Notes under the pieces: generated by a model | The model's database searches: none | Told to the model about the DNA's origin: nothing | The model's input: only the letters and a program-made list of their open reading frames with translations | In this document: positions 1,795 to 3,830 of the stretch, piece by piece | How the letters are laid out: every line of letters begins with the position of its first letter | Numbering within the stretch: position 1 is the first letter of the stretch | Assembly: GCF_050320075.1 (NCBI RefSeq) | Contig: NZ_CP190025.1 | Direction: 5' to 3' (one strand) | DNA length: 5,772 bases | From: Escherichia coli | GTDB taxonomy: Bacteria > Pseudomonadota > Gammaproteobacteria > Enterobacterales > Enterobacteriaceae | Position numbers and translations under genes: made by a program

Positions 1795-2943
1795 TCATAA
1801 TATGATGGCTAGGAAGCATATTCCAATACCTATGAGCAGGTTCAACGTCATCATTATTTTTCTAAAAATACTGTTACAATTTGTTTTTAAAAAGAATGCT
1901 GATGGGATAATGAATACTGTTATTGCTATAATTGGGGTTGATAATGCAGCAATAACTTTTATAATTTCGAAATTGGCTTCGCCTGCTATAAATGTGATAA
2001 CAGATACGACAAAAACGATTAATGTTTTGTTTTTAAATCCAAGGGATACTATTGTATCAACAACGCCTGTTAGTGTACCTGTATATGCACCGCTGGTAAT
2101 TAAAATCATGGTTAATATGGAAATGTAAGCAACGAAACTATTTTTTGTTACGTTGGCGCTATATGATAATGCATCGCTGTTAATCTCGCGCATGTTTTTT
2201 ATGTCTGAAGGTGAGAATATATTGCTTAATGAGAACACGATGAATGAGATAAATATTAAAATTAATAGTATCCCAAACATGAAAAAACGTAAATCACCGG
2301 CTGTATCTTTTTTGTTTTGAGCAAAGCGTTGTATACATGGTGAAAAATTAAAACTAAATAAAACAACTGGAAATAGAGTAAGTAAATTACTTGTACTAAT
2401 ATTTTGTATTTCTGTAGAATGTGGATGTGCTGGATGTGAATAGAAATATATAGATAAGAACAGTACAATAAGCAAAGATGGAAATGCTATTCCTGATGCG
2501 AGATGCTCTATCTTTGAATTAAAAAAGATAAAAGAAGAACCAAGGGTTGCAGAAATAATCAGTGACACAAATATTCGCTCTGAACCATTTAGACTTAGGC
2601 TAAAGCAAATAATATTTATCATTGTTGTTATGTTTATAATTGCTATTAACAGCATTGATAATAGGAATGCAATACTGATAGCATTTGCGGCTTTTTTTCC
2701 GATAAATAATATGGCAGAACTAACGTATTCTTTTTTGTCTGTAATTAAAATGAATCTATAAAATGTAAATTGCCCTAATAAAGATACCAAAGATGATAAA
2801 ATCAGTATTGTTATTGTTCCGTGAGTTCCTATGACTTTGGGGCCTACAGTCTGGGGTAGGAAAAAAATCCCTGCCCCAAATGATGTTGCAAAGAATGTTA
2901 CTGGCCATTGGATGCTATTTATCTTCATTTTTGAACCTTTCAT
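1795..2943 (-). CDS. HAAAP-family (hydroxy/aromatic amino acid permease; SdaC/TdcC/TnaB/Mtr/TyrP-like) membrane transporter
   Basis: Highly hydrophobic multi-TM ORF. N-terminal motif SFGAGIFFLP and central motif FSFNFSP match HAAAP signatures recalled from SdaC (GTAIGAGVLFLP ... FSFNHSP). Start chosen at the ATG 2943..2941, which overlaps the upstream stop as ATGA. In-frame alternatives are 2979 (ORF-track start), 2952 and 2928; the last is preceded by AAAGG. Very AT-rich. Confidence 0.85.
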   Translation of the reverse strand: MKGSKMKINSIQWPVTFFATSFGAGIFFLPQTVGPKVIGTHGTITILILSSLVSLLGQFTFYRFILITDKKEYVSSAILFIGKKAANAISIAFLLSMLLIAIINITTMINIICFSLSLNGSERIFVSLIISATLGSSFIFFNSKIEHLASGIAFPSLLIVLFLSIYFYSHPAHPHSTEIQNISTSNLLTLFPVVLFSFNFSPCIQRFAQNKKDTAGDLRFFMFGILLILIFISFIVFSLSNIFSPSDIKNMREINSDALSYSANVTKNSFVAYISILTMILITSGAYTGTLTGVVDTIVSLGFKNKTLIVFVVSVITFIAGEANFEIIKVIAALSTPIIAITVFIIPSAFFLKTNCNSIFRKIMMTLNLLIGIGICFLAIIL

Positions 2944-3830
2944 TTGAAGCATGATGTTCCAAAGAAAATAAGTAAACATGGAAGATTAAAATTACTATAA
3001 AAAGATGCTGCTGCTTTATAGCCATTAATTACATTAGCCATTGAGCACAATGGGAATACACCTATGTGTGATGTGTAATTGTCAAATGTCTTGTTCGATG
3101 AAATTTTATATCGAATCGAGCGAAATGTAGCTGCGTTACCTGCTGCACAAGTCGGTTTGTTATTTTTTATCACTTCAAATGATGAACCATCGACATTCAT
3201 AAAAACAGAGTTGTTTTCTTTAAAAAATGGCTTTTCTTTTTCTTTTCTTTTAATGTGTCGTTTAAAACGATCTGCCATGTTTTTTTCACTAACATAGAAA
3301 CAATTTATTTTTATATTATGCTGATTCTGTTTCTCTATAATATAGTTATTTATTACTTCTGGTATTATATAGGGTGATGTGGCTAGTTTTCTATAAATAT
3401 TACCACCATCGATATCTTCGCCATTTGATTTTTCCATGTAGAAATCATTTATTTCCATGAGGAAATCAGGTTTTATATTTAGCTCATGTGTTGATTTTAT
3501 TATGTAGTCAATGCAAAATTTAGCCGATTTTTCAACCTCATTACTAACTGAAAAACGGTCATTCAAATTCACAACAGTATGTCCACCAGATATAATAATC
3601 TTGTCTGATGTGTATTTTTCGGCTAGTTTTATTACAGTATCTATGTTGTCATCTGATATTTCTGTGTTTATTATCTCATCGATTCCTGTGCAATCTGCTT
3701 TGTATACAACAAATCTGTCTTCTTTTTTCCAGTCTTTTGTACAATTACATTTATAGCCCTCGTATATTGCTCTTTTGTTTTTTTTATAAAAATCTGGACT
3801 TTGTAAGGGCATTATTTCTAGGTCTGGCAT
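2940..3830 (-). CDS. Hypothetical 296-aa soluble, Lys/Asn/Ile-rich protein of unknown function (first gene of the cargo operon)
   Basis: Uninterrupted 296-codon ORF in an AT-rich region; ATG at 3830 preceded by AAGGAAG 7 nt upstream; stop TGA overlaps the start of the downstream permease. No family signature recognised by eye. Confidence 0.75.
   Translation of the reverse strand: MPDLEIMPLQSPDFYKKNKRAIYEGYKCNCTKDWKKEDRFVVYKADCTGIDEIINTEISDDNIDTVIKLAEKYTSDKIIISGGHTVVNLNDRFSVSNEVEKSAKFCIDYIIKSTHELNIKPDFLMEINDFYMEKSNGEDIDGGNIYRKLATSPYIIPEVINNYIIEKQNQHNIKINCFYVSEKNMADRFKRHIKRKEKEKPFFKENNSVFMNVDGSSFEVIKNNKPTCAAGNAATFRSIRYKISSNKTFDNYTSHIGVFPLCSMANVINGYKAAASFYSNFNLPCLLIFFGTSCFK

Follow-up and report, generated by a model that had tools for sequence, protein, structure and literature searches.

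Aminoacyl-tRNA-dependent enzymes with roles beyond translation, including the cyclodipeptide synthases (CDPSs), Fem, PEARLs, and SbzA, borrow housekeeping tRNAs. CDPSs and SbzA use aminoacyl-tRNA as donor; SbzA, an IleRS-like protein of SB-203208 biosynthesis, and AcmF have a synthetase fold and transfer the aminoacyl group from a charged tRNA into a small molecule (PMC12945691). Among RNAs, seryl-tRNA synthetase (SerRS) charges tRNA-Sec and allo-tRNAs by way of the long variable arm and G73, whatever the anticodon; tRNA-Sec provides the scaffold on which serine is converted into another product, and tRNA-Other of B. cereus, a small tRNA-like RNA, has a role outside translation (PMC5389517, PMC9976931). 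Here, we analyzed a complete 5,772-bp ColE1/Mbe-type mobilizable plasmid of Escherichia coli (contig NZ_CP190025.1; its full length is referred to as the window), which has the same sequence as E. coli pSM107_2 and carries genes for a 296-amino-acid (aa) protein with a predicted synthetase-like fold, a permease, and a tRNA-like RNA. We found that the genes for the protein and the RNA are linked across phyla, together with a transporter gene and usually a gene for a phosphodiesterase-type metallo-β-lactamase (MBL)-fold protein, on mobile DNA. These findings suggest an undescribed RNA-dependent route by which a small molecule derived from serine is produced or handled. Enzymes with a synthetase fold that use aminoacyl-tRNA are known already; as far as we can tell, a family that is undetectable by sequence, has such an active site, and is accompanied on mobile DNA by a non-decoding tRNA look-alike of its own is undescribed, and in a search of the literature neither the protein family nor the RNA nor the plasmids were described.

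The 296-aa protein and its predicted active center

In a preliminary description prepared from the sequence alone, the open reading frame (ORF) for the 296-aa protein (Table 1) was proposed to be the first gene of an AT-rich operon and to encode a soluble, Lys/Asn-rich protein forming the functional core of the plasmid cargo. Our analysis confirmed its position, strand, and length and agrees with this proposal in that the ORF is the first gene of a 31%-GC cargo, the protein contains 10.8% Lys, 9.8% Asn, 10.8% Ile, and nine Cys residues, no segment is sufficiently hydrophobic to span a membrane, and the protein is the conserved core of the cargo. Disruption in related plasmids had been named as an observation that would count against the ORF; instead, it is intact in ~20 plasmids and also across lineages that have diverged by ~5% in DNA. 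Because, in addition, the ratio of nonsynonymous to synonymous substitution rates (dN/dS) between two plasmid lineages 5% apart is 0.127 (0.142 for the permease gene), we conclude that the ORF is a real gene under selection.

Hidden Markov model and related searches, which the preliminary description had recommended, gave no significant match to any characterized family: Pfam (searched with the protein and both alignments), NCBIfam, PADLOC, PHROGs, and PDB (sequence and profile) returned nothing significant for the protein or the family profiles, and none of the 34 + 25 family members scanned matched Pfam or NCBIfam. The initial characterization of the protein as an orphan of no recognizable family therefore holds for the sequence libraries with respect to the family, while the protein is no orphan. 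We identified homologs in 56 clusters in an index of 5.8 billion proteins as well as 41 representatives (50% identity level) in a set of 1.84 billion, all of them unnamed in the databases. Their sources are Pectobacterium, Rahnella, Edwardsiella, Salmonella, Enterobacter, alphaproteobacterial and Lentisphaerae metagenome-assembled genomes, Cetobacterium and, at greater distance, archaeal-looking contigs; a collection of 100,044 species genomes yielded only 8 loci. Neither homologs of the protein nor the tRNA-like RNA were present in phage and viral collections. Based on this observation and the lack of a PADLOC match, we ruled out an anti-phage defense gene. We note that in the Edwardsiella anguillarum chromosome (L014; 6387–6890 and 9705–9792, minus strand) and in L011/L025, the enzyme gene appears to be truncated or frameshifted. 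Only ~57–62% of the protein aligns in these cases, the database protein (P0043) has 166 aa, and the permease match in L014 is also partial, so that these copies may be pseudogenes.

AlphaFold2 with the family alignment yielded a high-scoring model (predicted local distance difference test, 90.9; predicted template modeling score, 0.90), and a fold search identified the predicted structure as the catalytic domain of a class I aminoacyl-tRNA synthetase (aaRS), i.e., Rossmann-type with class I topology. The structure prediction and fold search proposed earlier thus uncovered a catalytic fold for a protein in which no family had been recognized. The closest matches are true synthetases and the ATP-dependent Cys ligase MshC, in agreement with Foldseek against AFDB50, and the predicted fold resembles that of class Ia/Ib synthetases (ArgRS, CysRS) more closely than the TyrRS/TrpRS-like fold of CDPSs. 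The HIGH signature is absent from the helix after strand 1, where the loop and helix start at residues 87–96 read VVNLNDRFSVSNEVEKS; the one string that fits H..[HN] (HELN, residue 115) sits at the distal end of that helix, as judged from sequence and predicted secondary structure rather than by superposition. Similarly, the protein contains no KMSKS-like string and no G-x-D after strand 4. Because it ends (GTSCFK; family consensus GKSCF) seven residues past the last Rossmann strand (residues 285–289), it is without an anticodon-binding domain. Comparison of the family profile with the verified E. coli CysRS sequence using hhalign gave a probability of 0.3%; therefore, kinship is seen in the structure only, and motif equivalences are deduced from the order of secondary-structure elements. 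Altogether, these analyses support that the protein is a stand-alone, strongly diverged class I aaRS-type catalytic domain that, based on the model, has lost the ATP signatures and the anticodon-binding domain.

We also considered a PP-loop ATPase (TilS, TtuA, QueC) and rejected it: the SGGH after strand 1 is an incomplete SGGxDS motif, and there were no PP-loop fold matches. Separately, several uncharacterized bacterial proteins of 250–320 aa in the AlphaFold database, among them A0A7H4PJ28 (Klebsiella michiganensis), A0A3E1P012 (Chitinophaga), and A5W0L5 (Pseudomonas putida; "large polyvalent protein-associated domain"), have the same fold at 13–18% identity (Foldseek E values, 1e-7 to 1e-9). 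These models hint that stand-alone synthetase-like domains carried by mobile elements form a larger group.

Nine residues are invariant across the superfamily, including members with identities down to 18–23% (C30, H84, D129, R147, P157, C228, P260, C262, and C294). The four Cys-containing segments quoted in the preliminary description are present (residues 26–34, 43–53, 212–236, and 257–267), and the mapping of conserved Cys, His, and Asp residues that it suggested returned H84, D129, and four cysteines (C30, C228, C262, and C294), in support of several of the flagged cysteines being functionally central. Based on the order of predicted secondary-structure elements, H84 and D129 lie at the ends of strands 1 and 2, respectively; C228 opens the helix that follows an inserted β-meander, C262 opens the one that follows strand 4, and C294 comes directly past strand 5. 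In the model, these five residues would map to the C-terminal edges of the sheet, which is the site of the active center in class I synthetases, and D129 would be the counterpart of the class Ia Asp that binds the α-amino group. By secondary-structure order, H84, C228, and C262 (together with N266) would fall at the places of the zinc ligands in CysRS and MshC, which lie at strand 1, the post-CP1 helix, and the post-strand-4 helix. The zinc ligands of CysRS, C28, C209, and H234, would occupy the same topological positions. The four invariant Cys residues and the His residue suggest a metal center and/or a thiol nucleophile.

The tRNA-like RNA and its linkage to the protein gene

The preliminary description missed the decisive partner of the 296-aa protein, a gene for a Ser-type tRNA-like RNA located 176 nt upstream of the ORF in divergent orientation (Table 1). 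The RNA has a class II body with a 3-bp D-stem, a long variable arm, G73, an encoded CCA, and a CUU "anticodon"; its acceptor stem is GGAGAGG/CCTCTCC, and it resembles a genuine Edwardsiella tRNA-Ser. The Prokaryotic Genome Annotation Pipeline (PGAP), which currently names both cargo proteins "hypothetical," lists the RNA as tRNA-Lys in every RefSeq copy. When we compared the RNA with the features of a tRNA-Lys, i.e., a class I body, a short variable loop, and A73, which is a Lys identity element, only CUU fitted, and this solely for the E. coli plasmids. As its body is Ser-type (class II, G73), the RNA has almost certainly been mislabeled on account of the CUU triplet. The serine identity set, which is independent of the anticodon, comprises the variable arm, G73, G1-C72, and G2-C71, and G73 also rejects LeuRS and TyrRS (PMC9976931). 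The tRNA-like RNA carries this set in full.

The RNA gene adjoins the protein gene in three E. coli plasmid lineages and next to homologs in L005 (two copies), L008, L009, L011/L025, L013, L014, L022, L023, L024, L026, L035, and L036 (two copies). It directly precedes the protein gene on the same strand in some loci and lies ~190 nt upstream in divergent orientation in the others. With a covariance model derived from 13 copies, all copies scored 72–107 bits and a true tRNA-Ser(UGA) scored 59 bits. In 16 copies, 99.6% of the acceptor, D, and T stem cells are paired compared to ~50% in slid controls; five stem pairs are altered on both sides, which was equaled in 0 of 500 shuffles; and the variable arm retains a 5–8-bp helix despite differing sequences. 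All 16 copies have seven acceptor pairs and five T-stem pairs, and the acceptor stem GGAGAGG is invariant save in one degenerate Salmonella duplicate; the other stems covary. In Salmonella pRSE21 (L036), the RNA gene is present as a tandem duplicate (5709–5811 and 5560–5662, minus strand), the second copy of which scored 72 bits, is the source of the A1-U72 pair and the mismatch in the covariation table, and may be decaying.

The linkage is reciprocal in annotated collections: every E. coli genome with the RNA also has the protein, and among 72,556 plasmids, the long-arm RNA matched only three large plasmids, all of which encode the protein. Half of the protein lineages are without a private RNA, and the RNA-less loci contained no match when scanned for any Rfam family. 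For the remote archaeal-type members, we found neither a tRNA-like gene nor SerRS at the loci examined. The archaeal-looking contigs of L043 contain several unannotated ORFs of 296–330 aa (5982–6872, 8001–8993, and 12434–13426), one of which is the remote member P0087, interleaved with double AsnC-type helix-turn-helix regulators and radical-SAM genes in a context unlike the bacterial cassette. A weak tRNA-like match (34 bits) on the plus strand lies ~150 nt downstream of a very remote homolog in L033 (2541–2623) and L034 (6426–6508); this homolog is apparently frameshifted, its N-terminal fragment LTGGGCFTTNL has Cys where the family has H84, and a 320-aa membrane protein follows next in L034.

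Mobile elements often integrate at tRNA genes, and the tRNA-like gene might thus be left over from an integration site, or hitch-hike with the mobile DNA, without a functional tie to the protein. Transposases flanking several loci and a genuine tRNA-Ser(UGA) 4 kb downstream of the Edwardsiella copy (L014) would be in agreement with this explanation, which we nevertheless consider extremely unlikely, given that full cloverleaves with compensatory changes accompany the protein gene in either orientation, on both plasmids and chromosomes, and in different phyla. Moreover, no integrase is adjacent, and what an attachment site leaves behind should be the 3' part of a host tRNA whose anticodon is normal.

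Conservation does not extend to the anticodon arm, which has stems of 5–13 bp and loops of 4–12 nt among the copies. An arm of 5 bp with a 7-nt loop is present in the window (CUU) and in L024 (UCA), L005 has 5 bp with a 6-nt loop, L026 has 8 bp with a 5-nt loop, and the copies on Enterobacterales chromosomes and large plasmids have hairpins of 12–13 bp with 4–6-nt loops. Because of this variation, ARAGORN labels the copies Lys, Val, SeC, Ser, Thr, or "???," and no serine anticodon in a conserved 7-nt loop was found across the RNA family. The anticodon arm being free to vary, the RNA would therefore not be a decoder across the family. These observations make it very unlikely that the RNA is an ordinary translating tRNA (tRNA-Lys(CUU) or a serine-inserting missense tRNA) beside an unrelated amino-acid-metabolizing enzyme that works with the permease only. 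The class II body with G73 is unlike that of any tRNA-Lys, arms with 12–13-bp stems and 4–6-nt loops cannot decode and yet the RNA stays beside the protein, AAG codons are neither avoided nor enriched in the cargo genes, and RNA and protein co-occur in both search directions. What speaks for an ordinary tRNA is the canonical loop with a conserved CUU in the three E. coli plasmid lineages, the PGAP label and, to our knowledge, the absence of a tRNA-Lys(CUU) from E. coli. Given this loop and CUU, the RNA could still be an ordinary tRNA in the E. coli plasmids.

The near-invariant GGAGAGG acceptor stem looks as if it were read by a dedicated protein, and a protein without an anticodon-binding domain is paired with an RNA without a conserved anticodon. 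Together with the nearest fold matches being real synthetases and the ATP-dependent MshC, and with H84, C228, and C262 at the putative zinc-ligand positions of CysRS, this would be consistent with a minimalist true synthetase that activates an amino acid (Cys, Ser, or a non-proteinogenic one imported by the permease) and charges the private RNA via the acceptor stem. Protein and RNA would then form an orthogonal aaRS/tRNA pair, with the charged RNA used for synthesis or, in E. coli, for AAG decoding. This alternative appears unlikely to us because the protein is without HIGH, KMSKS, or G-x-D after strand 4, and every class I adenylate-forming enzyme known to us keeps a HIGH-type motif. Also, the profile comparison with CysRS found next to no probability of kinship, the private RNA is missing from half of the lineages, and the full SerRS identity set would be needless unless SerRS charges the RNA.

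Neighboring genes and plasmid setting

PGAP and an alignment with the ortholog in L009 both place the start of the permease (M18) 11 nt past the stop codon of the 296-aa ORF; therefore, the two genes do not overlap. The permease matched TIGR00814 (stp) over its full length (E value, 1.4e-23) with 83.7 bits relative to a cut-off of 525.8 bits and is not an equivalog; PGAP names its orthologs "threonine/serine transporter." In the preliminary description, an enzyme role was argued from operons of HAAAP permeases. However, the gene orders, which we compiled from a local tblastn table and gene calls, revealed that the enzyme has an HAAAP-like permease as its partner in Enterobacterales alone; elsewhere, EamA, MFS, or SSF transporters take the place of this permease. 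Because the transporter family changes while the enzyme stays, the argument is not transferable to the whole family; it is possible that the 296-aa protein acts on an imported amino acid.

On Enterobacterales chromosomes and large plasmids, the order is RNA (divergent), enzyme, HAAAP-like permease, and a convergent MBL hydrolase; the small plasmids of E. coli and Klebsiella have the same arrangement without MBL. L005 and L024 have RNA, enzyme, EamA, and MBL, while L008 has RNA, enzyme, MBL, an unknown protein, and MFS. Loci without RNA include the Cetobacterium Rep3/relaxase plasmid (EamA, MBL, enzyme) and those of Alphaproteobacteria (NUDIX, enzyme, MBL, radical SAM), and gut contigs have EamA and enzyme. 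The MBL partner belongs to the RNase/phosphodiesterase branch.

Two near-identical RNA copies are present in L005 (7837–7924, plus strand; 14633–14720, minus strand) in inverted orientation, each heading an inward-pointing operon (enzyme-EamA-MBL in one, and a 43-aa ORF, radical SAM/SPASM, MFS, and Asp/Glu racemase in the other), with flanking IS200/RAYT-type transposase genes. The RNA may double as an operon leader here, or the cluster may have a peptide-modifying branch. Such a position at the head of two operons, as well as the duplication in Salmonella, would fit a cis-acting or regulatory role, and the 296-aa protein could be an enzyme that modifies or processes the tRNA-like RNA or host tRNA-Ser (e.g., by thiolation or a different change to a base or ribose, via Cys-ligated Fe-S/Zn as in the HUP-class tRNA thiolases TtuA and TtcA). 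In this case, the RNA would act in regulation, as a decoy, or in a toxin-antitoxin-like manner instead of carrying an amino acid. We regard this explanation as improbable, although the four invariant Cys residues and one His, the PP-loop-like SGGH turn after strand 1, and the RNase/phosphodiesterase branch of the MBL partner are all compatible with it.

In L037 (4099–12195, plus strand), a tight co-directional string consists of genes for a sodium:solute symporter, a remote homolog (21% identity), family-less proteins of 1,192 aa and 211 aa, and SerRS. This serS is full length (526 bits; cut-off, 302) and was observed at this one locus only. Other remote members lie beside B12/radical-SAM genes and AsnC-type regulators. 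The accessory genes gave no chemical lead: a ProRS probably serves housekeeping, the radical-SAM enzymes are of a generic kind, and no family was recognized for two large proteins. In L002 (10923–13483 and 13550–14470, plus strand), enzyme-MBL-radical SAM is followed by a GT4 glycosyltransferase, a PIG-L-family deacetylase, an unknown protein, and a glycerophosphodiester phosphodiesterase. The combination of GT4, PIG-L deacetylase, and a CysRS-like ligase follows the logic of mycothiol/bacillithiol synthesis, possibly by coincidence.

Table 1. Features of the cargo region and its surroundings in the 5,772-bp window
Feature	Coordinates	Strand	Remarks
Cargo insert	1717..4140	none	2.4 kb; only three genes (permease, 296-aa ORF, RNA gene)
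Membrane permease coding sequence, 377 aa	1795..2928	-	Distant Ser/Thr transporter (HAAAP/stp) relative; 8 hydrophobic segments
296-aa stand-alone class I aaRS-like (Rossmann/HUP; predicted) protein coding sequence	2940..3830	-	ATG start, TGA stop
Shine-Dalgarno-like AAGGAAG	3838..3844	-	7-13 nt upstream of the ATG of the 296-aa ORF; read off the sequence
Sigma-70-like promoter candidate of the operon for the 296-aa protein and the permease	3860..3889	-	TTGATA-18-CAAAAT, 9/12, consensus scan; weak match, matches in the region being no more numerous than in shuffled sequence
Ser-type (class II) tRNA-like RNA gene	4007..4095	+	ARAGORN; Rfam tRNA, 46.2 bits; covariance model R1, 87.5 bits; covariation
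RNAI of the plasmid backbone	4205..4310

The GC content of the cargo insert is 31% (RNA gene apart) compared to 55% for the ColE1/Mbe backbone. Similarity to hundreds of related ColE1-type plasmids breaks off near 1716 and restarts near 4140–4145, and the cargo therefore amounts to ~2.4 kb. No flanking repeats were found at the cargo ends, which are thus without insertion-sequence-like boundaries. A cargo-encoded peptide substrate is unlikely, as the cargo contains no credible small ORF. The cassette is rare in complete E. coli genomes (20–21 of 5,426), where it is on small plasmids in every case, and it is also present on Klebsiella plasmids. The mobilization region (48–1508, 643–1161, and 1168–1401, plus strand) has the nesting typical of ColE1, with mbeB-like and mbeD-like ORFs within the relaxase frame; the relaxase of the window is a 486-aa ORF, where PGAP calls only an MbeB-family coding sequence and no relaxase coding sequence on pSM107_2.

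Proposed function and comparison with described systems

We favor a model, to which we assign a probability of roughly 0.45, in which SerRS charges the private RNA and the enzyme takes the seryl ester as an activated donor for a small serine-derived product that is moved by the transporter. This model is favored because it is the simplest one that uses the fold, the invariant set, the Ser-type RNA, and the linkage together; we infer that SerRS charges the RNA, that seryl-RNA is the donor, that there is a metal site, what kind of product is made, and which way transport runs. In detail, the plasmid-expressed, tRNA-shaped RNA would retain all that SerRS needs (long variable arm, G73, G1-C72, G2-C71, and CCA end), and the host SerRS would load serine onto it. 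The enzyme would dock the acceptor end of the seryl-RNA in its synthetase-like pocket, where D129 would hold the α-amino group and the Cys/His cluster (H84, C228, C262, C294, and C30) would provide a metal site and/or a thiol nucleophile. The seryl ester would then serve as the pre-activated donor for the product, similarly to aminoacyl-tRNA in CDPSs and SbzA. The co-encoded permease could bring the product out or a precursor in, and in most chromosomal versions, the MBL-fold phosphodiesterase might work on the RNA or the nucleotide part. Lineages without the RNA could draw on housekeeping tRNA-Ser.

A bolder version, which we hold to be doubtful, is that of a mobile, self-contained cassette in which the non-decoding, SerRS-charged private RNA is an aminoacyl carrier in the manner of an acyl carrier protein, and the Cys/His-metal aaRS-fold enzyme, of a family not recognized before, reads the acceptor stem to convert the seryl ester to a bioactive small molecule that is secreted. 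In that case, the product may be of the aminoacyl-nucleotide type or a serine-derived antimetabolite, with MBL and transporter accounting for release, immunity, or export, and the cassette would represent a new "microcin-like" competition factor on ColE1 plasmids of E. coli and Klebsiella. If the RNA is a dedicated aminoacyl carrier, it could prove to be something categorically new. A system with its own tRNA look-alike, of which only the parts needed by SerRS are kept while the anticodon arm decays, would show a path from a tRNA to a dedicated metabolic cofactor. It would also define a new enzyme family invisible to sequence searches of Pfam, NCBIfam, and PDB. The cassette is carried by mobilizable plasmids of clinical and animal E. 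coli and Klebsiella and by replicons of Salmonella, Enterobacter, and Edwardsiella, and a product that is antimicrobial or a niche factor could bear on gut competition. Finally, the RNA/enzyme pair might serve as a natural starting point for orthogonal aaRS/tRNA engineering.

Among the described systems, the CDPSs had already been named in the preliminary description as an example of aminoacyl-tRNA-using enzymes of this size. The class I aaRS fold supports the direction of that suggestion but not the family, since the 296-aa protein has no Pfam CDPS match. CDPSs (AlbC, Rv2275, and YvmC) form a diketopiperazine from two aminoacyl-tRNAs and rely on a Ser nucleophile and a Tyr/Glu set, whereas the family described here has no invariant Ser, Tyr, or Glu and, in their place, four invariant Cys residues, one His, one Asp, and one Arg. 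We know of no CDPS that comes with a private tRNA-like gene. None is mentioned for CDPSs in PMC12945691.

A further comparison is with CysRS and the CysRS-derived ligase MshC (also BshC). CysRS and MshC keep HIGH and KMSKS and use ATP, whereas the protein described here has neither motif, shows no sequence-profile kinship to them, is ~100–170 residues shorter, and has the extra invariant residues C30 and C294. SbzA differs in being a full-length IleRS paralog with HYGH and AMSKA, editing and anticodon-binding domains, and a housekeeping tRNA-Ile as partner, while GluQRS (YadB) keeps the ATP motifs, is a clear GluRS paralog by sequence, and modifies the anticodon of tRNA-Asp. On the RNA side, the acceptor/T-stem geometry is 8/5 in bacterial tRNA-Sec and 8/4 or 9/3 in allo-tRNA (PMC5389517). 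In contrast, the RNA described here has the ordinary 7/5 geometry and differs further in that its anticodon arm is very variable in length and in that it is linked to an aaRS-fold protein rather than to SelA/SelB.

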